47,795 nt of DNA from Candidatus Micrarchaeota archaeon (GCA_018304385.1 JAGVWJ010000009.1:1-47795); one strand, 5' to 3'; shown: positions 1-40,660, numbered from the stretch's first letter. Numbers and translations are program-made. Notes: generated by a model from the sequence alone, not told the origin.

Positions 1-733
1 ATATCTTTATCTTTTAGAAGTTCACTAGCAATTCTTATTGCCTCATCAAACTTTTCTTGCTTTGCAGCTTCTCTTGCAGCATTTTTTGCTTCATTTTTAC
101 CACCAATCTCTACATAAATGCTTGCAGCTAAAAAGAAACTTCCTTCAGCTAGATAATGCTCTGCAGCATCTACCTTTAATGCCCTTGCTTGCTCAGCTTC
201 TGCTGCTGCAGCCTGTTCAACTAATTTTCTGCGTACCCATCCTTTAACTGCCTCTAATGTTTTTGCATCGAATTTCCCCAAATGCTTATGCTCTGTGTAA
301 TAGGAATCGGGACCCAAGTTCTTTTGTAATGCAGCAATAGATGCTGCTGTTCTATCTGTGTTTTTACCAATAAGATTACCTGGAATATTAAATTTTCTAT
401 CTAAAACTCCTTCTTCAACAAATGCATTAACAATACGATGAACGCGTGCCAAATTTTCATTTGCTTCATGTCTTTCACCAGCAGGAATCTGCATTACAAA
501 ATTAATTGGTAAATTAAATAATCTGTCTCTTTTTTCTGCTAACCTAGTGGACTCCGAGTCTATTATTGCTACTGGTGCAAGCTGCGCTACAGCAGCAGTA
601 GCTGCAACCTGTGCTAAGAAAGCTGAATTTGCCATTGCATGTGCCTCTAAAGCCAGCGGCTGCTGGCCAAGGAAAAATTTCCTACTAGTGCCAGTGCGGT
701 TGAACCTTTTGATTTCCTTTTTAATACACCCAT
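1..733 (-). CDS. Partial (runs off window start) protein with peptidoglycan-binding-like (PG_binding_1-type) motif followed by TPR-like helices
   Basis: Not in ORF track. Manual translation from ATG at 733 is open to base 1: MGVLKKEIKRFN...LARVHRIVNAFVEEG...GKNTDRTAASIAALQKNLG...LGKFDAKTLEAVKGW...HYLAEGSFFLAASIYVEIGGKNEAKNAAREAAKQEKFDEAIRIA. In-frame TAA lies 10 codons upstream of the ATG. Confidence 0.75.
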
Positions 734-876
734 TCTATAAAGATGGCCTTCAGCTTTGGATTATTATCTATTGCCTTTTGCAGTAAACCTTACTTATCAA
801 AAATGATAATTAAGGTTGATTGTATATTTTCAAAGGTGTGATTTATCCATCCACTGCCATTTACCAAAACGATACA

Positions 877-950: not shown

Positions 951-3476
951 ATGGGAGACAGAGCAGGTGTTCAAAAAGGACCAAAACAATTGGCTTTTAG
1001 TTTTGCTGAAAAAGGCCAAGAAGCTGGAGGTCCATTGGGAAGAGTTTTAGGTCAAGGTGTTGATGTATTACATGAAAGCGTAGCTGCTGTTCATGACGCT
1101 GTGCGCGAAGAAGGTGCAGCAGTCGCAAGATTAATGACTTCTTTTACAGGAGAAATGGGTGGGCTTGCAAGAAATTTAGGCGCAGCAAAAGATGCATTGG
1201 ATGCATTAAAATCTGAAGTTTCTAGTGGCAATAGTGCACTCAGTGAACAATTAGGTGGATTAGCAACACGCATTAGCGAAGTGCAAGCTGGTTTAGAAAG
1301 GGCAGTAACAAGTTCTTTTGAAGCTGCAGCTAGGGCTAATGCAGAATCGATTAGTGCAAGTGAGGGAAGAATTAATGCTGCTGTTGGAGATAGTAAAACT
1401 GCTGTTGTAGAAGGCGAGGCACGATTAAAAGCAAATGTTGATCAAGCACAGGCTGCAGTTATGGGTGCAGTAGAAAGAAAAGCTGGTGAAACAAATGCAG
1501 AAATTGCAAGAGCACTTGCAGCAGTTCAAGCAGTACAAGCAGATGTTAAGGCTGTTTTAAGCGAGTTCACTGATGCAGACAATGGAAAAGTAAACCTATT
1601 AATTGGCGCATTGGTCAGCACATCAGATAAGGTTGATGCTGGATTGGAAAGACTTGATAGCATTAATCGATCATTGGAAGCACAAGCAGTAACATTAGCT
1701 GTTCATACAGAGGCATTAGGCAGAATTGAACGCACTGTTGTTAATGTTGAAACAGTCTCAGGCAGAGTATTATCAGAGTCTAGAGCAGTTCTTGATGAAG
1801 TTGTGACACTAGGAAGACAAGTTGAATTATCAGTAAGACAAGGTGGCGAGGATGTTGCTGCAGTCAAAGCACATGTTGATGCGCAAGTTGCAGGCTTAAA
1901 AGACCATGTTGATGGCGCAGTAACGTTAATGCTTAGCCAGATGCGAGAATTAAAAGCAGCATTGGGCGATGGCTTAGCTGGCGTGATCGCAGCAGTCCAT
2001 GCGGCTAAATTAAAACCAACAGAGGTTGTAGTTTCAGAACAAGCTGCTCCGGTTTTACCAAGACCAATTGTTGGTGAAAAGGGCGGTGAAGAACCGAAAA
2101 TTGGTGAGGCAGTTGTAGTTAAAGCAGCAGGACCTGGTCCCAGTGCAGATGAAATAGCACATATGGAACCAGCTCCTAGCATACATGAAGCTACAATAAG
2201 AGAAGCAGAAGAGAGCAGAGATTTAGCAAGGCTTCATTCATATGCACTTGTACTAATAAGTGGACAAAATAGAGATGATGCAAAACTAGCAATAGATGCA
2301 TTAGAGCGATTAAAAGCAACAGATGTTTTATTTAGCGTTAGACAAAGAAGCACAGATGTGGAGCTTGCAGATCAAGCAAGTGCAGCGTTTGGAAGGGTTG
2401 CTTCTTTAAAAGATCAACTAACATTAATTGGCGATCAAGCGCTAATTGATATGTTCTTACAATCAGATACAGCGCCAGAGAGAAAAGGAGAAATTTTGAA
2501 TTTATTTTTAGAAGAGAGACTAAGAACACCAATTTTAGATATTTATAGGAGAGTAGAGAGAGATGACAAACAAAGCGTAAGGGCTGCTCTTGATAAATTT
2601 GATAGAGATCTCATTGCAGAAGCAAAACAAAAAATAGCGAGTGGTGATTTATCTGGTCATACCGTACTTGTACATTATGGTTCAATGCTTGTTGAAGAAC
2701 AAACTCAAGATAGTGCAAGATTAGCAATGGCCGCATTAGAAGAGCAAAAAGAAGCAGATGCATTAGGTATTGTCGCAAATAATCTTGAACAACAGGGTTA
2801 TCCAGAACTTGAGCTATTAGCAAGAGAGGCAATTGAAAGATTAACACCTGAAAGAACAGTTGTAACAAGAGCTGTTGTCACTGAAGCTGCACGTACAGAA
2901 GTTCCAGCTTCAACATATGATGCAGATGCATTGCTCGTTAGATTAAAGGATAAATCAGATCCAAGTGAACTTCAGCGTGCTATAGATGTTGCTGGCGAGT
3001 ATTTAGCAGTAGAATCAATTCCAGATTTATTAGACTGGGTTGTTTATGCAGCAGTATTTAGACCAAGTGACGAAAGAGGAAAGGCATTGCAAGGAAATGA
3101 GGCAATGATATCCGGTAAGGCAATTAGTGCATTAGAAAAAATAGGTTATGCAAAAAATGAAAACGCAGAAGCAATTTGCAGACAGGTATTAGAAAAATTA
3201 AGAAGCACACACGCAGCAGGATTTTTGGATAAAAATGCATTCCAGCTAATAAATGCAAAACCACTTGTACGCTTAACAATAAACTTTAGTAAGCTATTAT
3301 CAAAGGATTTAACAGCGCAAGTAAGGGCAGAACTAGAATTTTTAAGAGGAAAACTAAGAGAGGAAGATGCAGCAGGAAGTCAAACACGAGTTATTCTCAG
3401 AGATGCAGTTACTGTATACAGTGATATAGAAGAGGCGCTTGCTGCATTGCCAAAAAATGGCCGTAAGAAGAAGTAG
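951..3476 (+). CDS. 841 aa hypothetical protein: N-terminal Ala/Val-rich coiled-coil/helical bundle, Pro-rich linker, HEAT-like solenoid
   Basis: Long ORF with SD. The first ~350 aa are amphipathic heptad-like; linker KPTEVVVSEQAAPVLPRP; downstream helical repeats (DAKLAIDALERL, ARLAMAALEE, KAISALEKIG). Confidence 0.8.
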   Translation: MGDRAGVQKGPKQLAFSFAEKGQEAGGPLGRVLGQGVDVLHESVAAVHDAVREEGAAVARLMTSFTGEMGGLARNLGAAKDALDALKSEVSSGNSALSEQLGGLATRISEVQAGLERAVTSSFEAAARANAESISASEGRINAAVGDSKTAVVEGEARLKANVDQAQAAVMGAVERKAGETNAEIARALAAVQAVQADVKAVLSEFTDADNGKVNLLIGALVSTSDKVDAGLERLDSINRSLEAQAVTLAVHTEALGRIERTVVNVETVSGRVLSESRAVLDEVVTLGRQVELSVRQGGEDVAAVKAHVDAQVAGLKDHVDGAVTLMLSQMRELKAALGDGLAGVIAAVHAAKLKPTEVVVSEQAAPVLPRPIVGEKGGEEPKIGEAVVVKAAGPGPSADEIAHMEPAPSIHEATIREAEESRDLARLHSYALVLISGQNRDDAKLAIDALERLKATDVLFSVRQRSTDVELADQASAAFGRVASLKDQLTLIGDQALIDMFLQSDTAPERKGEILNLFLEERLRTPILDIYRRVERDDKQSVRAALDKFDRDLIAEAKQKIASGDLSGHTVLVHYGSMLVEEQTQDSARLAMAALEEQKEADALGIVANNLEQQGYPELELLAREAIERLTPERTVVTRAVVTEAARTEVPASTYDADALLVRLKDKSDPSELQRAIDVAGEYLAVESIPDLLDWVVYAAVFRPSDERGKALQGNEAMISGKAISALEKIGYAKNENAEAICRQVLEKLRSTHAAGFLDKNAFQLINAKPLVRLTINFSKLLSKDLTAQVRAELEFLRGKLREEDAAGSQTRVILRDAVTVYSDIEEALAALPKNGRKKK

Positions 3477-3490
3477 TATGAGGAATTCCC

Positions 3491-6400
3491 ATGGCAGAAG
3501 ATCCAATTGCAAGATTAAGGCAGCTTCGCGCTGCGCAAACTGAAGACCCACTTGCAAAACTTAGAAGACTTGCAGGAAAAGGCGGAGAAATAGCAGCAGC
3601 AAAGCCTGCTCCAGAACCAGCTGCAGATGTTAAACCACCTGCTAGCGCCCCAGCACTACAGCCAGTTCCTACAGCAGTAACTGAATTAGCACCAACTTAT
3701 AGATATAATGAAAAAAGTGCTGATACACTCTCAACTGAATTACTAAAGGCAATAATCCTAGATATAAATGATCGCAATTTGGGAACAGCATTAAGGGCTG
3801 TTGAAAAAATAGGAAAGTTCGATAAAGGTATTATACTAGTTTTAATAGATCAAATTGAAACAGATCCACGCTTTACTTCTTTGGAAGTCGCAGTAAAGCG
3901 TGCATTAGGAGAATTGAAAGCTGCTAAAGCACCAACTTACAAATATACTAATGACGATATTGCTCTAGCTGTAAGCGAAAAAAACGCAACCTTATTGCAA
4001 GAAATAATTCTTGACAAAGAAAATCGCAGCGAACAAACTGCATTAGCAGCAATTGAGGCATTAAAAACAAACCCACCACCAAAACAGGCATTAGAATTTT
4101 TTCGTGCGCTTGTTGTAGATGCGCGTTACATTAATTTAGAGCAAAATGTACTTGATAGTATTCTTACTGCAAGAGGGGAATTAAGAGCACTTGTACCTCC
4201 ATCAGAGGATACATCACCAAAATACAGATATCCAGAGGTTCAAAGGGCTTTTGGAAAAAAGGATTTGGAACAATTAGAAGGTCTTGTTAGAGAATATAAA
4301 ACTATTACAGATGCAATAGCATTAGAAGCAGTTCATGCACTTGAAGACATTGGTAAATCAGGCGAAATGGAAGCCTTAAGATCATTAAGAAGGCTTAGAA
4401 TGAATAGTCAAATAACGATGAATAGAAATTCAGTTGTTGTTCGAGCAATTGCAGATGCAATGGAAAATATAGTTAAGGCAACCCATTATACTGAAGAAAA
4501 TGTAAGAGAAGCAGTTGAACGTGGAACATTTAGCGCATTATCTTCGATTATTCTTGGAGAAGCAAGGCCAAGAGAAGTTGCAGTAGCACTTGCAGCCATA
4601 AAAGCACTTAAGGAAAATACTCCAATGGATGTTGCACTTAGAGAATTAAGAAAGGTTAGGTCAGATCCGAGCTTTAATGGTTTAGATATAACTGAACGTG
4701 CACATGTTGAATGGGCAATTAGTAATTTAGAAAGAGTTGGTGGAGAACTAGCAGGATTAGTATTAGCTGGTGCAGAAGCAAGAAGAGAAACACATGCAAA
4801 CGTTATCGCAAAGGCAGAAGACTTGAATACATTAGTTGTATATGCGCAAATGGAGATTGAGGGCCAGGGCGAAGCTGATGCAAAACTAGCAATAGATAAA
4901 ATAAAGGGATTGGAAGCATCATTCTTAGATACTGATGCAATATTACTTGAGGTTTCTGAATATCACAAAGGGAAAAATGACGGGCTTGCAGAATATGCAA
5001 GGGCTGCTTATTTAGAAATAACTTCAGTTTCCAATATCTATCAAATGGAAGGCGCAAATGCATTAGTTGATTTATGTTTAAAAGATGAAACTTCAGAAGC
5101 AAGAAAAAGAGAAGTAGTAGAATTTCTTGCTGGGGAAAAAGATCGTGATGCGCTTAAAGATATATATATGAAAACCTTTGGCGCTTTAGAAGAAACAGTA
5201 ACTGCAGCTATAGCAAAGATTGATCTTGAAGGAATAAAAAATGCTGAGGAACGTGCACAGGAAGGCAATACGAATGCATTCGTTGATCTAGCAAATAGTG
5301 CAAGAATGAGTCCGTTCCCATTATCAGAAGATAATGCTAAAGAAGCAATATCTGCATTAGAACGATTGGCAAACGCTAATGTATCAAAAGAAGACATAGT
5401 CTATGAACTAGAGCGTATTGCACGCACTCATAGTAAACATGATCCACCTAGATCAGAACTAGCACGTTTGGCAAGAGAAGCACATACAAGATTATCAGCA
5501 GTTCCAAGTGCTCCAAGAGTCACACAAGAATTAGAAGCAGTAGATATTCTAGATGAAGCGCCCGCAGAAGAAACACCAGCACGATTAAGACCTGCAATTT
5601 CTGATAATCCAATTTATCGAGAGGCATTAGATTTATTAGCACAAGATACTACGCAAGGTGATGCAAGAGCAGAAACTCGCGCGATAAGATTAGAAAGAGA
5701 AGGACATTTTGCTGAAGCAGCTGATATTTGTGAACGATTAGGAAAAAATGATGATGCAGAAAGAATAAGAAGAAATATACCAGAGGCTAAAGTACCAGCA
5801 ATTTCAGATAATCCTACTTATAGAAGAGCATTAGAATTTTTAGCACAAGATACTTCTCGCGATGATTATGAAGCTGGAAGATTAGCCAGACAATTAGAAG
5901 GAGAAGAATTTTTAGCAGAAGCAGCAGATCTTTATGAACGATTAGGAAAAAATGATGATGCAGAAAGAATAAGAAGAAAAATAGGTGTACCAGAAGCAGA
6001 AGTTCCATCACTGGCTCCAGTAGTTGAAAGAGGGCCAACGTTTGGGTCAGGTCCAAGACCAGCAGAAGAGCGGCTGCCTCCTCCACCTTCAGTTATGCCG
6101 CGACCTCCGCCTTGGCAACCAGTAGCTTTACCAGGCATGATACCTCCAAGGACAGAGGCTGGAGAATTTTCAGCTGTTGGATTAGAAGACGAATATGCGC
6201 GTTCAGGTTCTGGCCCATTAGTTAGAAGATTCGGAACTGCAAGCACTGAAGAGCAAACAGCAATTCTTAATTTACTCGCAAGAAGAAAAGATCGTGATGC
6301 ACTTGTAAATTGTGCGCAGCCATTATGGGGAACTGATGGGCAACAATATGAAAATGTAGAGGAAAAACTAGATGAAGTGGATGCAGCAAAACTTACAGGA

Positions 6401-8158
6401 CTAGAGCAACAATATAAAGATGGGAATGCTGATGCACTTGATCATATTGCAACATTTGCTGGCAGAGACTATTATGATTGCATATCCCAAAGAACAAATC
6501 GTTTAGCTATAGAAACATTGGAAAGGTTAGAAGCACTTGAAAAATTACACGCAATTTCAAAATCAGAATATGCAACACCAGTAACCAGTGATAATGCAGA
6601 GGCAGCATTTGGCAGAGTTCTTGAAACAACTATGGCTAGAGTAGAAGCAGATATAAAATCACGTGATGAAGCAAGATTCAAACATGGCACTGCAAGATTA
6701 CGAGAATTGAATCAGCGCTATCCTGGTGCAGTTAGACCATATTTAAATAAAATTTTACTTGACTTCCCTCCTGGGGAAGCAGCATTAATTTCTGCAAAAT
6801 TAGTAACACAAGAGGATATTCAACAGGCTGCAAGAGAGGTTAATACAGAATATTTGGCAGATGTTGCTACAAACAAACATGTTGCAGAAGAACTTAGATA
6901 CAGTGCACTTAGAAGCCTATTTGCAATTGCAGATAGACATTCTAATGAAGATACTAAGGTAAATGCAATATCCGCAATAGGAGCGGTTCTGAAAAAATGC
7001 GATAGCGTTATGTTCGAAGAAGGTTTAACAAATCTAGATCGAATCAAGAATGGATTTACTATAGAAAGAGCCATATTAGATCACTTAGCTTATGTTTTTA
7101 CAGATATTGCAGTAAATGCAACTGTTAACAAAGAGGGAAAAAGACCAAAAATAGTTGAAAACATATATGAAAGTTGCAGGAGTTTCAGAGAAACTGAAAC
7201 TACTGAGCTTGATGTTTTTTCTAGAGCGCTAGCAGGAATAGCAATGGAATATGATTACGCATATGAAAAATTAGAAAGATTATTTACTGATGTAAGAAAT
7301 GTTAACGGAAAAGAGATTATCCTTGTCCATCTTGAGAAAGTATCAGAAAATGCAATAAGCCAAGGTATAAAGGATAAAGCAAATGAATTCCTAGCAACTG
7401 TTTATGAAGGAGAATTAGTACACCTTTTTGAAAGATATCTGCCTAAGAAGGAAAGAGAAAAAGCAAATAGGGAGAATATCTTAAAAAGAAATGTAAATGC
7501 ATGGGCAAAGACAGTTAACCCTGCATATGATCAAGGTCCTTCATTAGTTGAAAGAAAAAACATTCTAATGCAAGCATTGGGGATAGCAATGGAACAAGGA
7601 AATAAAGAGCTACTTATTGAATTGCCAAGCGCTACAGAACATATTAATTCTTCAAATAATGAAACGCGAGCTCAGGCAGCAAAGGAATTTAGAAAAATAG
7701 CAAAAAAAGTTCCAGAAGGATGGAGAGCGGCAATTCAAAACATGCTATTAAAAACTGCAGTTGAAGAGCGCATTGGACCTGTTGCCTTTGAAATGATAAA
7801 AACTATTGGTGTAATAGGCGACTTGGATGCAATTAAAGCATTACCCGAAGTAAAAACACATCACATGGCGCTAGCTTATGAAATTGATAAAGCAATTGAT
7901 AAGATAGAAAAACGATTAACAAGAGAGAATGCAGGTGGAAGCTTTTATAACAAGCCTGCAGCATGGGCAGCATATGCAACTGAAGCAAGCGTATTAGCAG
8001 GAAGTGCATTCGCAACAACAATAAATCCAGTTGTGGGCATTGGACTTGCATTATTAGGTAGTGCTATACCTGCAATAGTATTACGAATAGGAAAAAGAAA
8101 CTATAACGAAAAACACAAACCAGGAAAAGGAAAAGGTGATACTGATGAAGCTGCCTAA
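3491..8158 (+). CDS. 1555 aa HEAT/TPR-like repeat protein with C-terminal membrane anchor
   Basis: Four ~80-95 aa P(T/K)Y(R/K)Y-type repeats, two 68 aa tandem repeats, Pro-rich linker, HEAT-like C-terminal region (ETRAQAAKEFRKI...IKTIGVIGDLDAIKAL), hydrophobic tail VVGIGLALLGSAIPAIVL followed by basic residues. Confidence 0.8.
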   Translation: MAEDPIARLRQLRAAQTEDPLAKLRRLAGKGGEIAAAKPAPEPAADVKPPASAPALQPVPTAVTELAPTYRYNEKSADTLSTELLKAIILDINDRNLGTALRAVEKIGKFDKGIILVLIDQIETDPRFTSLEVAVKRALGELKAAKAPTYKYTNDDIALAVSEKNATLLQEIILDKENRSEQTALAAIEALKTNPPPKQALEFFRALVVDARYINLEQNVLDSILTARGELRALVPPSEDTSPKYRYPEVQRAFGKKDLEQLEGLVREYKTITDAIALEAVHALEDIGKSGEMEALRSLRRLRMNSQITMNRNSVVVRAIADAMENIVKATHYTEENVREAVERGTFSALSSIILGEARPREVAVALAAIKALKENTPMDVALRELRKVRSDPSFNGLDITERAHVEWAISNLERVGGELAGLVLAGAEARRETHANVIAKAEDLNTLVVYAQMEIEGQGEADAKLAIDKIKGLEASFLDTDAILLEVSEYHKGKNDGLAEYARAAYLEITSVSNIYQMEGANALVDLCLKDETSEARKREVVEFLAGEKDRDALKDIYMKTFGALEETVTAAIAKIDLEGIKNAEERAQEGNTNAFVDLANSARMSPFPLSEDNAKEAISALERLANANVSKEDIVYELERIARTHSKHDPPRSELARLAREAHTRLSAVPSAPRVTQELEAVDILDEAPAEETPARLRPAISDNPIYREALDLLAQDTTQGDARAETRAIRLEREGHFAEAADICERLGKNDDAERIRRNIPEAKVPAISDNPTYRRALEFLAQDTSRDDYEAGRLARQLEGEEFLAEAADLYERLGKNDDAERIRRKIGVPEAEVPSLAPVVERGPTFGSGPRPAEERLPPPPSVMPRPPPWQPVALPGMIPPRTEAGEFSAVGLEDEYARSGSGPLVRRFGTASTEEQTAILNLLARRKDRDALVNCAQPLWGTDGQQYENVEEKLDEVDAAKLTGLEQQYKDGNADALDHIATFAGRDYYDCISQRTNRLAIETLERLEALEKLHAISKSEYATPVTSDNAEAAFGRVLETTMARVEADIKSRDEARFKHGTARLRELNQRYPGAVRPYLNKILLDFPPGEAALISAKLVTQEDIQQAAREVNTEYLADVATNKHVAEELRYSALRSLFAIADRHSNEDTKVNAISAIGAVLKKCDSVMFEEGLTNLDRIKNGFTIERAILDHLAYVFTDIAVNATVNKEGKRPKIVENIYESCRSFRETETTELDVFSRALAGIAMEYDYAYEKLERLFTDVRNVNGKEIILVHLEKVSENAISQGIKDKANEFLATVYEGELVHLFERYLPKKEREKANRENILKRNVNAWAKTVNPAYDQGPSLVERKNILMQALGIAMEQGNKELLIELPSATEHINSSNNETRAQAAKEFRKIAKKVPEGWRAAIQNMLLKTAVEERIGPVAFEMIKTIGVIGDLDAIKALPEVKTHHMALAYEIDKAIDKIEKRLTRENAGGSFYNKPAAWAAYATEASVLAGSAFATTINPVVGIGLALLGSAIPAIVLRIGKRNYNEKHKPGKGKGDTDEAA
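5591..5998 (+). repeat. Intragenic tandem duplication, 2 x 204 nt (68 aa)
   Basis: Units start at 5591 and 5795 (PAISDNP); 45 nt exact identity between 5731-5775 and 5935-5979. Confidence 0.95.
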
Positions 8159-24423: not shown

Positions 24424-24427
24424 AAAT

Positions 24428-25453: not shown

Positions 25454-25490
25454 CAAGTGCTAGGGGGCGGGCCCCCTAGCGCAACCCCCA
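25454..25490 (-). repeat. GC-rich hairpin element, copy 1 (REP/RPE-like), intergenic
   Basis: Reverse complement TGGGGGTTGCGCTAGGGGG-CCCG-CCCCCTAGCACTTG; 9 bp perfect stem; first 18 nt identical to 43963-43980. Confidence 0.8.
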
Positions 25491-25504
25491 ATGAATTTAA
25501 TAGA

Positions 25505-25512
25505 TTTAAAAA
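25505..25512 (+). promoter_or_regulatory. TATA box TTTAAAAA, 22 nt upstream of ATG 25535
   Basis: Read directly; supports 25535 rather than 25376 as the start. Confidence 0.55.
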
Positions 25513-25534
25513 CTCTTCAGGACAAGATAGTAAT

Positions 25535-31445: not shown

Positions 31446-31607
31446 ATGAAAAAAAGATTAAAATTAAAAATTGACCTAAAAGAACTTGCCAAAGACAAGA
31501 AAAAAAATTTTGAAGAAAGGCTTAAATTTATTGATGCCTACGTTGAGTGGTTAAAGAAAACACCAAATAAAATATGGTCAAGGCAACAAAAGCAAATGTT
31601 AGGCTAA
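31446..31607 (+). CDS. 53 aa basic partner protein of the upstream nucleotidyltransferase (putative TA partner)
   Basis: Not in track. MKKRLKLKIDLKELAKDKKKNFEERLKFIDAYVEWLKKTPNKIWSRQQKQMLG, starting 6 nt after the NTase stop. Confidence 0.7.
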   Translation: MKKRLKLKIDLKELAKDKKKNFEERLKFIDAYVEWLKKTPNKIWSRQQKQMLG

Positions 31608-32140
31608 TTCTTTATTATCTTCTTCCCTCTTTCACTAGGCTCAATTCTTATTTTTCCTTTAAATTGGTCATTAAAGCTTCGCTTCAATGGTTCGCTATTT
31701 GTAACGTGATCAAGAAATACTGCGAGTGCTGCAACCTCGCTATGCGGCTGTGATGTAATTGCAATGTTAAAGTCAGCAATCTCGTAAACCTCTTTTGGAA
31801 CTTGCTCGCCACCAACAATAATTAACAGCCCTGAGCAATCAGCCTTCAGCCTTGAGCCAATTTCTGGTAATGGTAAACCGTACATTGTTAGATGTACAAT
31901 TACAAATCCATTTTTCTTATATTCATTGATTATTTTCTCATAATTCTTCTCATATTTTATGCTAAATTCTCCGCCCCACTCTTTCGCAAGACGCGAGACA
32001 CTAGACTCAAGACTCCCATCATGTTGACCAGTATAGATTATTTCGCTAGCGCCAAATGCGCGTGCAACTAGTGCAACATGCGTTGTAATGCGCTCATCAC
32101 GAGGTAAGCGATGGCCTAAGCGAAGAATTGAGATTTTCAT
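31604..32140 (-). CDS. trm56: tRNA (cytidine(56)-2'-O)-methyltransferase, SPOUT
   Basis: MKISILRLGHRLPRDERITTHVALVARAFGA, VHLTMYG, IVGGEQVP, QPHSEVAALAVFLD; true start ATG 32140 (track extends to 32293). Confidence 0.95.
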   Translation of the reverse strand: MKISILRLGHRLPRDERITTHVALVARAFGASEIIYTGQHDGSLESSVSRLAKEWGGEFSIKYEKNYEKIINEYKKNGFVIVHLTMYGLPLPEIGSRLKADCSGLLIIVGGEQVPKEVYEIADFNIAITSQPHSEVAALAVFLDHVTNSEPLKRSFNDQFKGKIRIEPSERGKKIIKN

Positions 32141-32191
32141 AAATACTCTTCTCTGCACATACTTAAAAATCCTTTTATAATAAATCAAATT

Positions 32192-32725
32192 ATGGGGCCA
32201 AAAACTAAAACCAGTGAAGCAAAGGATGTAGAAGCAGCAGTTGATTTGCTTGTTTCTTTTGCAAAGACAAACGACCCTGAGCAAAAAAGACAATTTATTG
32301 AAATTTTAAACGAAAAAGGCAGATCAAAGGAATTCCAACAGGAATTTATAAAAATGACAAAAAATGATCCTATTATCGGGCCTCTAATAAATGCACTAAT
32401 AGAACTTAATAAAGTTAAAAACCAAAAGGCTGAAACTGATCCTAACCAGCTCTTAGCTGCAATAGAAGATTGTAATAGCTTTTTTGGCAGACTGTCACTA
32501 CCAGCACAGAGTGACGTAGCAAAAGAAGTTAGCAGCTTAATAGAAAAATATGGTACTGATTTTATTGTTCTCATGCATAAAAATAGGGAAGAAGCAAAAA
32601 TAGCAAGCCCAAATGAACGGGTATTCGTTATGAGCACCAGGGAATTAAGTCTCCCATACCTACTTCTTGATATAGAACAAACAAGGGTTATGCTAGATGA
32701 ACTGGAAAAAGCTGTAAAAGAGTAG
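32192..32725 (+). CDS. 177 aa helical hypothetical protein, first gene of the 32192-40660 run
   Basis: ORF divergent from trm56; ends 5 nt before the next start. Confidence 0.7.
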   Translation: MGPKTKTSEAKDVEAAVDLLVSFAKTNDPEQKRQFIEILNEKGRSKEFQQEFIKMTKNDPIIGPLINALIELNKVKNQKAETDPNQLLAAIEDCNSFFGRLSLPAQSDVAKEVSSLIEKYGTDFIVLMHKNREEAKIASPNERVFVMSTRELSLPYLLLDIEQTRVMLDELEKAVKE

Positions 32726-32730
32726 GTAAA

Positions 32731-35700
32731 ATGGTAGAGGCATTAAAACAAAAAGAAGAGAAAATACCAGTAAAGGCTAGCGAATACTTTCATCTAGAAA
32801 AAGTTCGTGCTGATTTGCACGGTGCGTTTTCTGTTTCATTTGAAAAAAATATGGCAATTATAAAAGTGCCTTCGCTCTCAAAAAAGAATGAGTATTTTGA
32901 AATAAAAATTAACAAAGCAACATTTGAGGCAATTCTGAATAACTTTTTACAGCCAACAGAAAATAGACAAACGTCTGAAGAGCTTGTAAAATTCCTTAGC
33001 TTATTTTCTAATCATAGCGAGGTTCAAAACTCCATTTATAATGGAATTGAAATAGTATTGTTCAATAACTTATTCACGGCTTACGCAGAGATATACAAAA
33101 AAACTGGGGCGCTTGAAAACCAAATAATAAATATAAAATTTGATTTTAATGTAGATAAAAGCTTTGATGGATTGTATAGTTTTATCTATACAATTTATTA
33201 CGATCTAAAAGAAGAAAACAAGAAAGCTAGTGATAAAACTAATGAACAATGGCTTGAAGACCTTAAAGGAATTTATAAGACTGATGATGAAGACGTAGTT
33301 ATAGAAAAACTAAAGGATAAAATAAGAAAGGTTTTTGGAAATGATAAAACATCTAAAGCACGATTTTTAGATATGATTGACTGGGCAGAAGATAAAGAGC
33401 AATGGTTGATGTTAGGGTTGCTAAATAAATTTCTGGAAATAGCACAACGAGGAAAAAAAGTTAGTAGTGAGGATTTACTGTTCTTTAGCACTGCTGTTTC
33501 TAATGTTTATACTGTTTATTCAACTACTGAGAGGGGTGTGTTTGGCACAACTGAAATGGGCATACAAAGTGGAAACCTCTCTACTTCAACAGGTGTAGGT
33601 TACCAAAAGCAGGTTTACACAGAGGGCGAGCCAGTCAGACAATGGTCTGTTTCTCCTAAGGTTTCTGGCATAAAAACTGAAAATGGCTGGGACGTAATAT
33701 TCACATTTGATGTATCCCTTGGCCAGTTTCTCCTCTCAGTTCCTTTATATTCTATATCTGGAGGAATATTAGATGTTAGTTCATATGCACGTGTTGGCTA
33801 TGGAAATGTGGCTGTTGGATTGTTAAGCGGCGAATGGACAGCATTTTCTGGCATATTTACTATAAATCTTGAAACAGGCAAATTTGGCACATTGCTTCCA
33901 TTATGGATTTATGGGATTTTAACTGGTTTTAATGCAATAATGCGCGTACCGCAGCTAGCACAATATGCAGAGCCACAGGTTGCAGCAGTTGCATTTGCTA
34001 CGCAAAGCACAATGGAGCTAAGTGGGGCAAACTCACTGCTCGAGATATTGAATGTAATTGACTATTTTATTCCTGAACTAAGCAATAAAGGTGCGATTAA
34101 ATCACAAGAGCTTAAGCAAGAAATAGAAGAGATTCGCGGGTTGCTAAAACAAAATAAATACAATGATGCGCTTGCGCGTTTAGAAAGCTTATTAGAAAGC
34201 AAACACATAAGCAAATTAGCAAAGGCGCAGCTTGCCATTCTGCTGGATCAGGCAACAGATCTTGAATTTGTTCATTTAAAGGCTGGTGAAAGCATTAAGC
34301 CAAGTGCTGCTATTCGGGATCGCGTACTTGAGACTATGGCTGAGTTTGAAAAACTGGTTAAAAAAATAGAAAACGGAAAAAAACTAACTAAGGAAGAGGA
34401 AGAAACATTTCTTGCTAATTTCTATTATCTTGCGCAAAAGCTTTCAATTGTAGTTACACCAGACAATAGAATACTTCAGGCAAATCGCCATCATTTGGAA
34501 GATGTTGAAGATTACGTAAAATTATTCCAGATGCTTGCTAGGGCAGTTGGTGTTGTGCAAGGCAAAGAATATTCCTCAGTATTGGCAGAGGTTGTTGGTA
34601 GCTATAAAGAAAAAGTAGATAAAACAGGCACTGAAACTGAAAAAGAAATGCTAAACAGCTACATATACAGATTATCTGAACTCCTTGATGATAATGTAAT
34701 GAGCTCTATTGGCAAAAAAGTAGATTATCTTAGATCATTGGTTGGTGAAGATAAGCTAACTGACAAGAAAAATCTAATTCATTCCTTGCAGTTCCTTATT
34801 GAGCCTTTGATAAATGGTGTAAGACATACGATCTATGGAATTTATGGACATGCATACAATGCCAGATTAATGGATGATGTTTATCGTTTGGAAGAATCAA
34901 TTCACAACCTGGAGCATGAAGACCCAGAGTGGTTCCAAACAGAAGAAACCTGGAGATCAATTGGCAGGTTTGTTAGTGCTGGATTTTCACCTGAATTCTT
35001 AGCTCCAATCAATTATCTTCGTGTTATTAATTCTATTGGCACTATAGAGGAATTGAAAAAATCATCTTTGTACAAAGAAGACCCAGAGTTTAAGAAACGC
35101 ATTGATGGTGCAGAAAAAAGATTGCAGGCATTTATTAAAAAACAGGAAAGATATAGAAGGGTTTCTTTTGATTATGATAAGCTTAGAGAATTGACGCGTG
35201 ACAATGAACGCAAGGGATTTGATGCATTGCATGACATAATAGATGCATTGGATAATGAAGATGAATTTGAAGATGCGAGAAAGGCATTAGGAAAACTAAA
35301 GAAAGATAAACAAGTTACTACATTAACAGATAAGGAATTGGAAAATTTAGAGGCTCATTTAAAAAGACTAGATGATCTGAAAAAAAGAATTACACAACAA
35401 GCAGAAACAGCATTAGATAGCTATTATTTTGGCTGGTTTGAAACACGTGGGTCGCACATTAAATTGAAGGATAAAGCTGTTGATTTACTTGCTGAGTACG
35501 CTGCACTAAATCATCAGGAGCACGCAATTAAATATCTATTAGAAAACAAAAAGATTAGCGATGAAGATTATGAAACCGCAAACGCATATATACAAAAGAA
35601 AAAAACTGAAGTAAATGCCCAATCAGATAAACTAATGGAAGATAGAGATACTTATTATGCAATTATTAAAGATCCAAAATTCAAAGAAAGAGTTAAAGGG

Positions 35701-36189
35701 GCATATGCAAAAAGCTGGCTAGAATTTGGGAAGATTGCTAGTAAATTCGATACAGAAACCTTAGAGCTGCTAATAAAAGAAAGAGATAAGGGTGTTTGGA
35801 AGGCTATTGAATTATTTAGGCAAGAAAGCAATCTTATTGAAACCACGGGCATGTTAGCAAAGGAAATAAACATTTTGAGGTCAGAGGTAAAATATCTTGA
35901 ACGACTTAAAGAAACACTGCATGCATTAAATGAAATGGAAGAAAGCGATGAAACAGAAGATGCATTAGATGCTGTTGATGATGCAATAGAAGAACTCAAT
36001 GAACTTTTAAAATCGTATCAAGAGGCTTTAGATAATTCCATAAAGTTATATGTGCATCATAGCTCTGCAGAGGATTATAAAAAACAATTGACACAATATG
36101 CAAGATATGTAAAAAAGGTTTATGAAACAATAAAACCTGAAGAATTTAAAAAACAAAAACCAAGAAGAATTGAAAGCGATTTATGGTGA
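32731..36189 (+). CDS. 1152 aa hypothetical giant protein, helical with a central beta-strand/hydrophobic block
   Basis: Central segment TGVGYQKQVY...WSVSPKV...VIFTFDVSLG...SYARVGYGNVAVG...FSGIFTINL...LPLWIYGILTGF; charged helical flanks. Confidence 0.8.
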   Translation: MVEALKQKEEKIPVKASEYFHLEKVRADLHGAFSVSFEKNMAIIKVPSLSKKNEYFEIKINKATFEAILNNFLQPTENRQTSEELVKFLSLFSNHSEVQNSIYNGIEIVLFNNLFTAYAEIYKKTGALENQIINIKFDFNVDKSFDGLYSFIYTIYYDLKEENKKASDKTNEQWLEDLKGIYKTDDEDVVIEKLKDKIRKVFGNDKTSKARFLDMIDWAEDKEQWLMLGLLNKFLEIAQRGKKVSSEDLLFFSTAVSNVYTVYSTTERGVFGTTEMGIQSGNLSTSTGVGYQKQVYTEGEPVRQWSVSPKVSGIKTENGWDVIFTFDVSLGQFLLSVPLYSISGGILDVSSYARVGYGNVAVGLLSGEWTAFSGIFTINLETGKFGTLLPLWIYGILTGFNAIMRVPQLAQYAEPQVAAVAFATQSTMELSGANSLLEILNVIDYFIPELSNKGAIKSQELKQEIEEIRGLLKQNKYNDALARLESLLESKHISKLAKAQLAILLDQATDLEFVHLKAGESIKPSAAIRDRVLETMAEFEKLVKKIENGKKLTKEEEETFLANFYYLAQKLSIVVTPDNRILQANRHHLEDVEDYVKLFQMLARAVGVVQGKEYSSVLAEVVGSYKEKVDKTGTETEKEMLNSYIYRLSELLDDNVMSSIGKKVDYLRSLVGEDKLTDKKNLIHSLQFLIEPLINGVRHTIYGIYGHAYNARLMDDVYRLEESIHNLEHEDPEWFQTEETWRSIGRFVSAGFSPEFLAPINYLRVINSIGTIEELKKSSLYKEDPEFKKRIDGAEKRLQAFIKKQERYRRVSFDYDKLRELTRDNERKGFDALHDIIDALDNEDEFEDARKALGKLKKDKQVTTLTDKELENLEAHLKRLDDLKKRITQQAETALDSYYFGWFETRGSHIKLKDKAVDLLAEYAALNHQEHAIKYLLENKKISDEDYETANAYIQKKKTEVNAQSDKLMEDRDTYYAIIKDPKFKERVKGAYAKSWLEFGKIASKFDTETLELLIKERDKGVWKAIELFRQESNLIETTGMLAKEINILRSEVKYLERLKETLHALNEMEESDETEDALDAVDDAIEELNELLKSYQEALDNSIKLYVHHSSAEDYKKQLTQYARYVKKVYETIKPEEFKKQKPRRIESDLW

Positions 36190-36193
36190 TAAT

Positions 36194-39100
36194 TTGGCAA
36201 CTCCTGTTCCTGTACAATTAAAAGATGAGGAAAAAAAGCTTAAACAAGCAATAAGAGGTATTAGTGCAATAGCTAGCGGCTTTAGAGAGATCGTCACTAA
36301 AATCAAAGAAAAGGATAAAGAAGGATATTTAGGAAAAAGAATTTATGAGATAGAAGAAAGATTACATAGTATAGAAATAGGGCTCAAGGATGCTGGTACA
36401 AGGCCATTAACATCACAGTTAATCTATGATTTGCAATCAAAACTAGAAACAATCAAAAAAGATATTGCCAGCTTGCAAGACGTAGTACAGCTGCTTCCTG
36501 GCAAAGAAGAAAAAACACCAAAGAAAACTATTATCCCAATACTTTTTGAATTAGAGCAGGCTGCTAGAAAATCACCTGAAGAATTTGCAAAGGTTTTAGT
36601 GAAATTTGAAAAGGCACTAGCAGAATTGGATGATGAGCAGAAAAAGCTCTTTATTAATTTTGTTTATAGCACAGAAGGTGCCTTTTCTTTACAGGTACTT
36701 TTGCGATTAGCAGAGGATTCAGCTAGACAAGATGGCACAGAAATTGGCAGTGTTGGGTATAATAAAAATGTTCTTGAAAAATTGGTTGAGATTGCAACTG
36801 CTATAAATGCTGCAGCAAAACAACGTGTTGCAGCCGGTGATAGCGTTTCTATTTATAGTATTACCTTAGCTGTTGAAAGAGCAGATATGGCAATAAGCCA
36901 GGCATTTTATAATGGAGAAATGAGAGGGCCTACATTTTCTATTGGGCCAAGCACTGGTGGTGCTCCTGCTGGAGCCCTTGCAGGTTATCAATCAGCCATT
37001 GAAACACTAGGCAAGTTAACAGCATTAATAGAAGGAAAACAATCGAAATATCTAAAGCAAATAATAGCTGGCCATCTAATGGAATTCTTAAAAACTAGAC
37101 ACTTGCTATCTCCAGAAGCCTTTAGTGAAGAGCTTATGCAGCCTGGCAAAGATGCTGAAAGAAAGGCACATACTGAAAAGCATTCTATGTATGGCTTGTT
37201 TAAGGAATACATGCAAAGATTTGTTGGTGAGGAGCTTACGGCAGTAAACTTCCTAGAACACTTTGAGAACTTTATAAGAGATTTTAATAAAATGTATATA
37301 CGCGCAGATAGGCTAAATGGCATTAACAATATGCTAAATAAGGAAGGATTTACAATAAACCTTTTTGCTTTATATAATAGTATTAGCGAGCGATTTGGAG
37401 AGGAACATTTTCTTAATGTAATGCATCATTTGTATGATTATTCTGATGACAATTTAGATAAACTTTTAATGGCATTAATAAAAGAAAAGAAAGGCGAGGC
37501 ATTAAACGAAAAAGAACAAGAATTGGTTACTCTCTATTTTGAAAAACTCATTCCGCTTTTAGCTACTGGGATTGCGCCAAGAATGATAAGCGCTGGTGTT
37601 AGCCCTGCTAAGATAGAACAATTACTTGCAAATGTAAGCTTTACTGATGTGCAAGTAGTTATTACTGCATGGCTTGACGCGCTTTCTGCTGGATATAATT
37701 CGCCATTGCTTAATACAATTGTAGATAGGATGATTGAGGTTTCTGCAAAAAATCCTAGATTGTTGAAATGGTTTATGGCAGATGTTTATTTGCCGATAGT
37801 AAATCATTCATTTGATGATAAAACTATTGGGGATGCATTAGAAACATTTAGAGCGCAATTTACAGGCAGATTTGCTGGGTTAGGCAGAACAGATATAACA
37901 AACTATGAATATTATTTGATAAGAACAATATTTCATGATATACGCGCACGCATAGAAAGCGCACGTGTTGGATTTAAAAATTATGATTTACTTGGAAATA
38001 TTACACCAGAAACACCAGGAACACCAATAGAGATGGTTTGGCATAGGGTTACACACACGCCGCTTGATGCTACACTACGCAGATTTGGCGAGGCGTTTGC
38101 GCCACCGTTTAGACAGCCAGGTGAGCTTTCAATACTTGCTGGATATCAATGGCTTACTATTGCAGATACGCCAGAGCACGGCATTGTTGGCATATTTAAT
38201 ATTCAACTAAACGCAGATAGGATCAGAAAAATATTAGAAAAGAATCTTGTGCCATCTAAATTTATAGATGCAATAAATGTTCCTCCAATTGCAAGCGCAA
38301 GCTATCAGGCATGGGATTTGATACCTGCAATAATCGCTGCATTCCAGAACGTACCAGAGCGCTTTTCTGATTTATGGCTTTATTATAGCGCACTTGGTGG
38401 TTTGGCATTTACTGTTGCTGGCAAACAGATACAACCAGGTGGAGAAAAAGTAGAAGGTAGCCAAGAAATTGCTGGCGGTGGCGGAGGTATATTCGCAACA
38501 GGTGTTACGCCAACTGGTGGCGGCGAGGCAAGGATTACAATTAGTGGCGCGCAGAATGCAACCAATGATTCGCTTTATTATTTAGCGCATTTAGATGCTG
38601 CTGCAACTACTGTTAAGCTCGCTGGATTAAAAACAAGGGCAGCAAGCATAGTAGCAGACATAACTGGAACAGATGAAATAGTTCAAACTGCTAGACAACG
38701 TATGGAAGCAAACATGCGTGATGTTATTGGCGAGCATGACATGATTGTTATTGAACGATTTAATTATGACCGAGACCTTGATAACCGAGACCTTGAACCG
38801 GATTTCCTAGATCGTGTTGAAAGTGCAAAAACATACATTGTATTCATAGGAAAAGATGGAGAGCGTGTAGAGCTTAACTGGGATCATATAAAGGATAATG
38901 ATTGGTTCCAGGCACTATCAGCAAGAATCGATCAAGCATGGGCAGATTACTATAACACTGGACGTTATGAATATGGTACTGGAAATCAAGGGGCTGCAAT
39001 TGCAGTTGAGTTGCCTGATGCATTTGGCAAAACATTAACAGATGCTAGCGCTGCTAGTGTTAGCCGCGCATTGGAAAAGGTTTTTCCAGGGGATAAATAC

Positions 39101-40660
39101 ATAAATTGGGAGTATGGAACTGGCTTAGGTTATCGCATTAATGAAAAATGGGCAGTTGGTATTTTTGATACTGGATTAAAGCATATAGATGAAAACAAAT
39201 GGAGAACTGCTGTAAGCGCATTAGCTTATTATTTTGATCGCGATGCAATTGCGCGGTTTGGCGCAGGCACTGGTGCAATTGCTAAATTATTTAAAAATGC
39301 AGAGCCAATGGCTGCATTCTTTGCAACAGGTTATTATCATGGAAGAAAATTCTTTAATCATTTAATGGAACTTAGCGCAAACATGACATTTGATCAAAAA
39401 GTAGCGTATTTACTTGATCCAGAAAAAGAGCATAGGCTTGTAGCTAATGTTAATGCTGCTGTTGATCTGCTTGTTGGCCATCAGATTGATAAAGAAACTA
39501 GATACATATTGAAGCTTGCGCTTTTACATGCTGTTATCCAGCAATTTATGCAAGTAACAGGGCCTGATGGAAAAATGAAGGACCAGGAGATTGCGAATAA
39601 AACTGCAAAGGCATTATACTTATTCTTTGGTTATAAAAATGTTGCTGGATTAGGCGGAAGTGGCATTGTTCGCTTTATGTTTGGACCACCAGAAATGGAA
39701 TTACTTGCATTGTTTAATCGATGGCAAGAGCGCAATCTAACTGATCGAAGCGCTTTAATAAGCGGATACAAGAATCTGCTTAATCGCATGACGGATGTAA
39801 TTAAACTACAGGCAGAGTATGGAAAGGATAAGAGGTTATACCTTAATGTTTTTGCTGGAAACTTTGAACAGGCAATAAGCCAAACATCTACAGGACAGCC
39901 AATAGAAAGCGCAGAGCAGTTTAGGGCTGCTGGCGAGATTATTGCATATATAACTGATAAATTCTACTTGGGCGGTGCAGTGCGATACAGCCAGATGAAT
40001 TTTATTCAACGTGAAACAACACCATTAGGAGATCTTCTTGAAGAGGAAAATATTGAAAATTCTGAAAAGGTTCAAATACTTGATACAATTGTTACTGCAG
40101 GAGTAGATGGAAAAATTCGCGTTGATCTTGGTGCAACATGGAGCGATCAGGCAAATCTTGGAGCTGGCAAGCTAGCTGGGGTAATAGGAAGAATAATGCT
40201 TGGGTGGGAAGATTCTATATTAAGTATTGCTGGCTCGCACGCTGATCTTAAGCAATTAGAATCAACGCGTGGCGAGATAGTTTATTCAGTGCTTGTTGAT
40301 GGCCAACCATTTTATATTTCAGTTAATTATGTAAATAGAAAGATTAAAGTGCTAGAGACAAAACCAAAGGAGCACATTATTGATCTAACCACTAGCTTTG
40401 TTTTCAATAGGACAGAAGAAGGAAAATGGGAGGCAGTTATAGACCTCTTCAGCTATTTAAATAGGTTAAAAGAAATGCCCGGTGCGCAGCTTGGCGCAAT
40501 CTGGTCTGGCATTACAACTAGATTTGGTGCATTTGTTGGATGGCATGTGCCGCCAGGTGTCCGCCCTGGTATTCCAGATACTTATAATTTCATTAGCGGC
40601 AGGCCATATGATTTTCTTATTAGATTATTCATAATGCATAGCTGGGGCGTTTTAGAATAA
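36194..40660 (+). CDS. ~1488 aa giant protein with helical N-terminal part and beta-barrel-like C-terminal half
   Basis: Likely TTG start 36194 after GGTGAT (track 36170). Strands WEYGTGLGYRINEKWAVGIF, FYLGGAVRYSQ, RVDLGATWS, RFGAFVGWH; paralog of 26274-30350. Confidence 0.8.
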   Translation: MATPVPVQLKDEEKKLKQAIRGISAIASGFREIVTKIKEKDKEGYLGKRIYEIEERLHSIEIGLKDAGTRPLTSQLIYDLQSKLETIKKDIASLQDVVQLLPGKEEKTPKKTIIPILFELEQAARKSPEEFAKVLVKFEKALAELDDEQKKLFINFVYSTEGAFSLQVLLRLAEDSARQDGTEIGSVGYNKNVLEKLVEIATAINAAAKQRVAAGDSVSIYSITLAVERADMAISQAFYNGEMRGPTFSIGPSTGGAPAGALAGYQSAIETLGKLTALIEGKQSKYLKQIIAGHLMEFLKTRHLLSPEAFSEELMQPGKDAERKAHTEKHSMYGLFKEYMQRFVGEELTAVNFLEHFENFIRDFNKMYIRADRLNGINNMLNKEGFTINLFALYNSISERFGEEHFLNVMHHLYDYSDDNLDKLLMALIKEKKGEALNEKEQELVTLYFEKLIPLLATGIAPRMISAGVSPAKIEQLLANVSFTDVQVVITAWLDALSAGYNSPLLNTIVDRMIEVSAKNPRLLKWFMADVYLPIVNHSFDDKTIGDALETFRAQFTGRFAGLGRTDITNYEYYLIRTIFHDIRARIESARVGFKNYDLLGNITPETPGTPIEMVWHRVTHTPLDATLRRFGEAFAPPFRQPGELSILAGYQWLTIADTPEHGIVGIFNIQLNADRIRKILEKNLVPSKFIDAINVPPIASASYQAWDLIPAIIAAFQNVPERFSDLWLYYSALGGLAFTVAGKQIQPGGEKVEGSQEIAGGGGGIFATGVTPTGGGEARITISGAQNATNDSLYYLAHLDAAATTVKLAGLKTRAASIVADITGTDEIVQTARQRMEANMRDVIGEHDMIVIERFNYDRDLDNRDLEPDFLDRVESAKTYIVFIGKDGERVELNWDHIKDNDWFQALSARIDQAWADYYNTGRYEYGTGNQGAAIAVELPDAFGKTLTDASAASVSRALEKVFPGDKYINWEYGTGLGYRINEKWAVGIFDTGLKHIDENKWRTAVSALAYYFDRDAIARFGAGTGAIAKLFKNAEPMAAFFATGYYHGRKFFNHLMELSANMTFDQKVAYLLDPEKEHRLVANVNAAVDLLVGHQIDKETRYILKLALLHAVIQQFMQVTGPDGKMKDQEIANKTAKALYLFFGYKNVAGLGGSGIVRFMFGPPEMELLALFNRWQERNLTDRSALISGYKNLLNRMTDVIKLQAEYGKDKRLYLNVFAGNFEQAISQTSTGQPIESAEQFRAAGEIIAYITDKFYLGGAVRYSQMNFIQRETTPLGDLLEEENIENSEKVQILDTIVTAGVDGKIRVDLGATWSDQANLGAGKLAGVIGRIMLGWEDSILSIAGSHADLKQLESTRGEIVYSVLVDGQPFYISVNYVNRKIKVLETKPKEHIIDLTTSFVFNRTEEGKWEAVIDLFSYLNRLKEMPGAQLGAIWSGITTRFGAFVGWHVPPGVRPGIPDTYNFISGRPYDFLIRLFIMHSWGVLE

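Follow-up and report, generated by a model that had tools for sequence, protein, structure and literature searches.

A family of exported giant proteins with a predicted barrel-like C-terminal region and its variable gene neighbourhood in a Candidatus Micrarchaeota genome

Membrane beta-barrels of bacterial, mitochondrial and autotransporter type (OprD/OccK, BBP2, AlgE, Omp85/Sam50/TamA, Hbp/EspP) are built of long antiparallel amphipathic hairpins with Gly- and aromatic-rich strands, carry an N-terminal signal peptide and often have an aromatic last residue. In Deinococcus SlpA and the OmpM-type tethers, a wall-binding domain and a coiled coil are combined with a large C-terminal barrel, and the large barrel of these proteins contributes to the outer envelope layer. 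Membrane proteins with a beta-barrel of the kind found in bacterial outer membranes are not known from archaea, and few genes have been assigned to the envelope and host-contact structures of DPANN symbionts. Here, a 47,795-base contig of a Candidatus Micrarchaeota archaeon (GCA_018304385.1, JAGVWJ010000009.1:1-47795; the window in the following) was analysed with the main attention to the gene at 25376-30350 on the plus strand, which encodes a giant protein of ~1,658 amino acids (aa) with a predicted barrel-like C-terminal part (the barrel giant), and to the gene of a ~130-aa partner protein directly downstream. An earlier note on this DNA had proposed that the large orphan genes within 1-40660 may form one envelope-spanning or contact-dependent apparatus. 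The explanation preferred here, with roughly even confidence, is that the window carries not one apparatus but three separately evolving sets of lineage-specific giants, most products of which are probably located at or under the cell envelope.

The window is the entire contig C23 of a Micrarchaeota (DPANN) genome of 1.53 Mb, which is distributed over 65 contigs and is 89% complete; the genomes of relatives measure 0.8–1.6 Mb. The block at 25535-30350 (block 3) had been regarded as separate open reading frames (ORFs). In fact, a single gene is interrupted here by a +1 frame break near an A6 run at 26397-26402. A single 1770-aa ORF of G001, the same-genus genome used for the comparison of gene order, was homologous to both the 25376- and the 26274-ORF, and the deletion of one base at the A6 run resulted in a translation co-linear with the intact homologues, with the break at ~26397-26410. 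The 15 other genomes with a match have open frames free of stops, 1,300–1,924 aa long, compared with 1362 aa here. The frame break could stem from a recent mutation or from an indel of the assembly, or it could be a site of programmed frameshifting. The claim that the 25376-ORF has no signal peptide was wrong, as a clear signal peptide was found at its N-terminus. The signal peptide is followed by a helical N-terminal part of ~650 aa and by a C-terminal part of ~1,000 aa with predicted beta structure and helical inserts.

The 25376-30350 protein belongs to an undescribed Micrarchaeota family. At least 19 homologues of 1,222–1,826 aa with 33–46% identity were obtained in the protein search, one of them annotated as Candidatus Micrarchaeota. 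In the profile search of the phylum, the family was detected in 13 of the 45 genomes of its own GTDB family, in one of the 10 genomes of a second family and as one weak match in a third, and in none of the 65 and 47 genomes of two other large families of the phylum. The window protein has a signal-peptide-like N-terminus, as do 10 of the 21 family members. The final residue was Tyr or Phe in 12 of the 21, the last ~20 residues being Pro/Gly-rich and not a strand.

The fold of the C-terminal 1,012 aa of the barrel giant was predicted with AlphaFold2 using 21 sequences. The mean predicted local distance difference test score (pLDDT) of the model was 57.9 and the predicted TM-score was 0.45, while residues 700-990, the last ~290 ordered ones, reached pLDDT values of 72–92. 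The model contained ~28 strands of 9–16 residues each, arranged in four groups with helical inserts between them. The strands at model residues 655-988 were Gly/Phe/Tyr-rich with alternating hydrophobic and polar faces, and the middle strands were polar on both faces. A crude scan of dyad amphipathicity gave no difference from shuffled sequences and was discarded.

Membrane barrels were retrieved with this model in all the fold searches. The Foldseek matches included FecA, FimD, BtuB and LptD with E values of 1e-7 to 1e-4 and TM-scores of only 0.1–0.2, the best E value of 1e-7 being obtained for FecA, FimD and LptD. With VIA-align, Z values of 13–15 were determined against the OprD/OccK, MOMP and AlgE porins, with ~260 residues aligned at a root-mean-square deviation (rmsd) of ~9 Å. 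In an unbiased scan of 48,161 PDB representatives, the 50 best matches were without exception membrane beta-barrels with Z values up to 14.0; in the same scan, model residues 652-997 resembled Sam50, BamA and TamA (Z ~10, rmsd 5.3–5.7 Å) and model residues 337-528 resembled autotransporter barrels. The shape search of the Atlas resulted in BBP2-type porins with TM-by-row values of 0.48–0.50. The C-terminal part of the barrel giant is thus predicted, with moderate confidence, to be barrel-like. Of the beta-barrel-like regions listed in the earlier note, the one in the 25376-30350 protein is upheld by the AlphaFold2 model and three fold searches. The one proposed for the 36170-ORF is not, as it was found only as a language-model lead (outer-membrane barrels at 0.84–0.86 in the ESM feature search).

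In comparison with the described membrane barrels, the barrel giant has in common the long amphipathic hairpins and the Gly/aromatic-rich strands, both in its predicted structure, the N-terminal signal peptide and, in many of its homologues, the aromatic last residue. The Z values were 13–14 with the 16–18-strand porins and ~10 with the Omp85-type barrels. In contrast to the known barrels, it has no sequence similarity to them, an archaeal host, a length of ~1,650 aa including the helical N-terminal part, helical inserts between the strand groups and middle strands that are polar on both faces. In addition, an Omp85 insertase was not found in its genome, and the cultured relatives are without a known lipid outer membrane. 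Like the barrel giant, the SlpA/OmpM-type tethers are very large exported proteins in which the N-terminal part is helical and the C-terminal part is a large barrel, the last being a prediction for the giant, and both SlpA (7zgx, Z 8.9, 413 residues aligned) and OmpM1 (8bym, Z 10.5) were among its fold matches. However, these matches were no better than those to ordinary porins, the giant is without an SLH domain, and a wall-binding-like domain, at best a marginal one, would be located on a separate neighbouring protein.

The gene directly 3′ of the barrel giant (30410-30811, plus strand) encodes a 133-aa protein of a multi-copy family with no match in Pfam. The ratio of nonsynonymous to synonymous substitution rates (dN/dS) of this gene was 0.04. 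A ~130-aa homologue was found directly 3′ of the family giant in 17 of the 18 loci with a visible downstream side, covering at least seven genera and two GTDB families. The gene of the tRNA methyltransferase aTrm56 (31604-32293, minus strand), a housekeeping gene, marks the position of the cluster: in ~8 loci it was located one to three genes from the family giant (five in L017). The contig of one relative carries, in this order, an ftsY-like SRP54 gene, genes of 608, 1148 and 435 aa, the family giant, a 127-aa gene and Trm56. When a complex of the 133-aa protein and the barrel giant (model residues 166-1012) was predicted, the score was 0.00, which was uncontrolled and gives no verdict. The ~130-aa family has a conserved N-L-x-P-P-x-x-P-P motif, a basic tail and several copies per genome (window 30410-30811; G000 C37:7094-7507; L013:1181-1585 and 10549-10974; L017:14873-15280 and 21684-22154). 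In G258 and L017, its copies also flank giants of unrelated sequence.

The genes upstream of the conserved pair vary between the species. The 355-aa protein encoded at 22708-23775 on the plus strand has a signal-peptide-like N-terminus and a marginal PG_binding_1-like stretch at aa 250-309. G001 has a 332-aa homologue of it in the same position, and the 332-, 1770- and 166-aa orthologues are contiguous in that genome. Directly 5′ of the conserved module, at 18737-22516 on the plus strand, lies the gene of a 1259-aa orphan giant; weak matches to this ORF were found in three of the 60 genomes of the family and none within the genus, and an unrelated 1447-aa gene occupies its position in G001. 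In other genomes, the upstream slots hold the gene of a PG_binding_1 protein or of a GDSL lipase, among others. Apart from the module at aa 410-745 of the 36170-ORF, no homology was detected among the giants neighbouring the family gene, for which the 18737-, 32731- and 36170-ORFs of the window and giants of G001 (1447 aa), L017 (2114 aa), L036 (1748 aa), G258 (2898 aa) and G019 (1452 aa) were compared. The AbiEii toxin gene (24428-25213) and its likely AbiEi partner (23818-24423), both on the plus strand, are inserted within the conserved cluster. The pair is specific to the window genome and is absent between the G001 orthologues.

The peptidoglycan-binding-like motifs that had been noticed in two proteins were retained in one of them at a marginal level. 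The stretch in the 22708-ORF matched PF01471 (PG_binding_1) with E=0.014 and 16 bits over profile positions 2-57, which is below the gathering cut-off of 23 bits, and no Pfam or NCBIfam match was obtained for the 3-635 ORF of the minus strand even at E≤10. In L016, the gene in the position of the 22708-ORF, directly 5′ of the family giant, carries a genuine PF01471 domain and is not detectably homologous to the window protein.

The coordinates of the co-directional large ORFs reported in the earlier note matched the ORF map, and the giants are genuine coding genes. The comparison was carried out with the sister genome GCA_053535495.1, two contigs of which are syntenic with block 1, with block 4 and with the end of block 3. 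The dN/dS values of the 32731-ORF, the 36170-ORF and the end of the 26274-ORF were ~0.11 and equal to that of aTrm56, whereas the 951-, 3491- and 8136-ORFs of block 1 resulted in 0.34–0.43, compared with 0.03–0.12 in neighbouring housekeeping genes. All the giants are thus intact or nearly so and under purifying selection, with dN/dS well below 1 throughout, and block 1 is markedly faster-evolving, exceeding its neighbours by a factor of 3–10. The large ORFs were without a match in Pfam at E<0.01, and no meaningful relatives of the giants were obtained when their sequences were compared with PDB, PHROGs and viral contigs.

Block 1 (951-9416, plus strand) begins with the gene of an 841-aa Ala/Leu/Glu-rich orphan with no transmembrane segment (951-3476; dN/dS 0.34). 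The second gene (3491-8158) encodes a 1555-aa orphan of helical composition with a single C-terminal transmembrane segment at ~aa 1511 and a basic tail. The two proteins have a ~266-aa module in common (30% identity). The sister orthologue of the 1555-aa protein was 56% identical with a dN/dS of 0.43, and a single weak match to this protein, in G005, was obtained from 40 relatives. A divergent Ala-rich ORF of 211 or more aa at 3-635 on the minus strand leaves the contig start. The GC content at the third codon position (GC3) was 0.18 for the first gene of block 1 and 0.19 for the 3-635 ORF, and altogether 0.17–0.19 for block 1 and this ORF versus 0.22–0.38 elsewhere on the contig. The first-position value (GC1) of block 1 and this ORF was 0.56–0.61, a combination that sets them apart from the rest of the contig. 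Homologues of block 1 were restricted to the sister genome and the one weak match in G005.

The third gene of block 1 (8145-9416) encodes a 423-aa protein that had been described as carrying a TonB-C-like domain. TonB, TolA and AgmX/PglI proteins consist of a single N-in transmembrane anchor, a Pro/Lys/Glu-rich spacer and a ~90-aa C-terminal domain, and a similar layout was observed here: a basic N-terminus, a hydrophobic segment at ~aa 18-38, TPR-like helices, a Pro/Lys/Glu-rich stretch at ~aa 296-330 and a conserved C-terminal domain of ~90 aa with a predicted beta-alpha-beta-beta-alpha-beta order, which was the second region folded with AlphaFold2 besides the barrel giant (pLDDT 71). By ESM-Atlas features, the nearest clusters were TonB_C and AgmX/PglI proteins at 0.85–0.87, and the Atlas's own model of the protein fell to the TonB_C and AgmX/PglI clusters with TM-by-row values of 0.41–0.43. 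The AgmX/PglI C-terminal profile NF033768 gave 17.9 bits (E=0.0025) with the window protein and 18.9 bits (E=0.0012) with the sister orthologue, both below the curated cut-off of 40 bits and thus no more than a hint of distant similarity. The C-terminal domains of HasB, FusB, TonB and TolA were among the top fold matches, with Foldseek E values of 0.04–0.15 and Z values of 3.2–4.1 only. PF03544 (TonB_C) was not detected on the protein at E≤10, in the genome at E≤1 or in any of the 251 genomes of the phylum, and none of 60 relatives had a homologue of the protein. Unlike TonB, it has a transmembrane segment without a His/SxxxH-type motif and TPR-like helices between the anchor and the spacer, and unlike in a TonB system the genome gave no match to ExbB or ExbD. 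What stands of the claim is therefore the N-terminal anchor, the Pro/Lys-rich linker and, weakly, the order of secondary structure elements. The protein resembles a TolA/TonB-type tether but is not assignable as a member of that family.

Block 4 (32192-40660, plus strand) consists of orphans of 177, 1152 and 1496 aa. An orthologue of the block was found only in the sister genome, and the search of 250 genomes of the phylum gave two weak matches. The 1496-aa protein of the 36170-ORF has no signal peptide. Its helical module at aa 410-745 recurred, according to hhalign, in giants of G019 and G258, which belong to two other genera, and an exhaustive search of 1.84 billion representatives with its C-terminal 797 aa returned only itself. 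The motif GGGG-x5-7-TPTGG was observed in two of the 2,505 ORFs of the genome, the 26274- and 36170-proteins (~27906-27962 and ~38474-38524), and is nearly invariant within the barrel family. Paralogy of these two proteins was considered and rejected, with BLASTP E>1 and an hhalign probability of ~1% or less, even with a 21-sequence profile; the likeness of the 36170-protein to the barrel family is confined to the motif.

The proposed core of the system is a conserved two-gene module next to aTrm56, composed of the Sec-exported ~1,650-aa giant and the ~130-aa protein. The C-terminal ~1,000 aa of the giant are predicted to form long amphipathic beta-hairpins which would fold like bacterial, mitochondrial or autotransporter membrane barrels, and the giant may form a pore- or ring-like element in the surface layer (S-layer) or the pseudo-periplasmic envelope. 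The ~130-aa protein would act as its chaperone or subunit. The 1259-aa orphan and the 355-aa secreted protein occupy slots that vary between species. Block 1 together with the ORF at 3-635 is a fast-evolving unit restricted to the species pair, with helical proteins of which one has a C-terminal transmembrane segment, and its TolA/TonB-like protein may serve as a passive tether from the membrane to an outer layer. As the searches gave no ExbBD-type motor, this protein is unlikely to act as an energised TonB. Block 4 is another unit confined to these two species. The signal peptides of the barrel giant and the 355-aa protein, the type-II anchor of the TonB-like protein and the C-terminal transmembrane segment of the 1555-aa protein make it plausible that several of the window proteins are located in the envelope, and to this extent the interpretation of the earlier note is supported. 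The exported barrel-like giant and its constant small partner, conserved in one clade of Micrarchaeota, are a concrete candidate for an envelope pore or dock, and the surrounding giants represent interchangeable, fast-evolving cargo and not parts of one machine.

Several results weigh against this explanation. The AlphaFold2 model of the barrel giant was of moderate quality overall, with 445 of the 1012 residues at pLDDT <50, and the porin superpositions were loose in rmsd and in Foldseek TM-score, so that a closed barrel does not follow from them. A search of the genome (89% complete) at E≤1 did not detect the Omp85/BamA insertase (PF01103), which together with the cultured relatives being without a known lipid outer membrane makes the site of the barrel hard to place. 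The barrel family is patchy even in its own GTDB family, which argues against an essential envelope role. Most of the giants have neither a signal peptide nor a transmembrane segment, and most of the 36170-, 32731-, 18737-, 3491- and 951-ORFs may therefore be cytoplasmic. The evidence for the TonB/TolA-like protein was wholly under the significance thresholds, and the best structural match of its C-terminal domain was the unrelated ZFYVE9 with a Z value of 6.6.

The alternative that survives best, and which we consider rather unlikely, is that the giants are host-contact adhesins or effectors of an ectosymbiont in an arms race, the barrel giant being a surface adhesin or translocator. The elevated rate of block 1 would suit an arms race, but dN/dS remained well below 1 everywhere and the barrel family evolves at a housekeeping-like rate of 0.11. 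Giant surface proteins are a familiar feature of DPANN archaea, and the unrelated giants that fill the slots beside the conserved pair in different species, the patchy presence of the barrel family and the match of model residues 337-528 to autotransporter-like barrels are in agreement with such a role. The same holds for the toxin-antitoxin modules and AAA_14-type ATPases adjoining the clusters. In contrast, adhesin, toxin and enzyme domains were not detected in any of the giants, and most of them are without a signal peptide or transmembrane segment.

An unlikely extension of the preferred explanation is that the 25376-30350 family is a true archaeal counterpart of the bacterial outer-membrane barrels, in which one or more C-terminal barrels of the Sec-exported giant would form a pore or docking ring in the Micrarchaeota envelope, assembled independently of Omp85 and with the ~130-aa partner, the TolA/TonB-like protein of block 1 being a lineage-specific tether. 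The giant would then be a candidate for the 21-nm barrel-shaped complex of unknown composition that has been described beneath the S-layer of ARM-1 (bioRxiv 10.1101/2024.05.20.594898). If real, the barrel would shed light on the origin of such folds and on their assembly in the absence of BAM. None of the papers searched joined Micrarchaeota, outer membrane and beta-barrel.

It is quite improbable that the giants are merely unrelated lineage-specific orphans, mostly cytoplasmic helical scaffolds, with the barrel and TonB-like calls as prediction artefacts of Gly/aromatic-rich and small alpha/beta sequences. The low overall confidence of the barrel model and the loose structural fits are in line with artefacts, but the recurrence of the signal peptide across homologues of the family giant, the amphipathic strands within the confidently modelled residues 700-990 and the exclusively membrane-barrel top 50 of the unbiased PDB scan speak against them. 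Similarly, although the TonB-like evidence was entirely sub-threshold, five separate tests, three of them on predicted models, pointed to TonB/TolA-type domains. Neither an insertase nor a motor was found and export signals are missing from most giants, as would be expected of cytoplasmic orphans; against mere unrelatedness stands the finding that, of 18 loci, 17 have the 130-aa gene next to the family giant.

The single apparatus over 1-40660 does not withstand the comparison of genomes, and the outcome is one that the earlier note itself had named as a refutation, namely that the occurrence of one block's homologues in a genome is independent of that of the others. The barrel giant is retained in G001, and the searches with the 3491-, 8136- and 36170-ORFs gave no match there. 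Of the genomes with a weak match to block 1, to block 4 or to the 18737-ORF, G005, G006, G019 and G258 were also in the sample of the barrel-family search and are without that family; G012 and G264 were not among the genomes shown to be in this sample. From these differing phyletic patterns it follows that the blocks are distributed independently. The parts that define the diderm machines (TonB_C, ExbB, ExbD, Omp85) were also not found: in the 89%-complete genome, ExbB (PF01618) had no match at E≤1 and ExbD (PF02472) gave only noise at E=0.12. The premise of a double membrane in Micrarchaeota does not hold for the cultured members. The supposed double membrane of Ca. Micrarchaeum harzensis (A_DKE) was an S-layer over the cytoplasmic membrane (bioRxiv 10.1101/2021.04.28.441871), and ARM-1 has the same arrangement (bioRxiv 10.1101/2024.05.20.594898). 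Thus, while the barrel-like fold predicted for the 25376-30350 protein, the TonB/TolA-like layout of the 8145-ORF, the marginal PG_binding_1-like stretch and the retention in the sister genome of block 1, block 4 and the last part of block 3 could be taken to indicate one envelope-spanning machine of a diderm archaeon with outer-membrane barrels, a TonB-like coupler and solenoid and PG-binding components, like the Agl-Glt or TonB systems, the independent distribution of the blocks, their differing codon usage and evolutionary rates, the missing TonB_C, ExbB, ExbD and Omp85 and the S-layer without a second membrane in cultured Micrarchaeota make this highly improbable.

S-layer domains of the S_layer_N/TIGR01567 type, as in SLP_Mh, had no match in the Pfam search of the giants, and the search of the genome for TIGR01567 gave none. 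The only S_layer_N-like match in the genome was weak (E=0.003) and belonged to a 957-aa ORF (G000 C26:11627-14500), which is near the size of the 101-kDa S-layer protein of Ca. Micrarchaeum harzensis and may be the canonical S-layer protein. The barrel giant was also considered as the main S-layer protein, which is unlikely given the patchy family and the separate ORF on C26.

The archaeal host is marked on the contig by aTrm56, a separate GMP-synthase subunit B and an A24 prepilin peptidase, and no tRNA genes were found in the 47,795 bases. A gene of a Cys-rich DUF5885 protein with 41 Cys and a lipobox-like N-terminus is located at 10093-10956 on the plus strand and is strongly conserved (dN/dS 0.03). 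It had been reported as a lipoprotein gene following block 1; the gene is present, but a HAD hydrolase gene lies between and no link to block 1 could be demonstrated, and in the sister genome a PIN toxin-antitoxin pair also separates the DUF5885 gene from block 1. Toxin-antitoxin pairs are inserted beside the giant blocks at differing sites, AbiEi/AbiEii here (23818-25213) and PIN with an 88-aa gene in the sister (L018:7118-7764). Genes of archaeal ATPases of the AAA_14/DUF4143 or ATPase_2/DUF234 type recur beside giant clusters in several genomes (window 17392-18696; L007:10798-12222; L016:5512-6588, 7642-8676 and 17525-18715).

Directly after block 4, the Peptidase_A24 gene of the prepilin/preflagellin type (40691-41545, plus strand) was detected with E=1.1e-5 and 26.3 bits, compared with the Pfam cut-off of 26.5; it is kept in the sister genome, where an ATPase gene lies between it and block 4. 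Four co-directional genes at 41545-45239 encode a GT2 protein with a chitin-synthase-like part, a 266-aa transmembrane protein, a polysaccharide deacetylase and an Acyl_transf_3 protein. Their order resembles the ica/pga-type operons, which make a partly deacetylated N-acetylglucosamine polymer, and one may speculate that such a polymer could be the ligand of the PG-binding-like domains in an archaeon without murein. At 45263-47399, two paralogues of 186 and 185 aa, 61–65% identical and each with an N-terminal transmembrane segment, flank a 284-aa protein with a C-terminal transmembrane segment.

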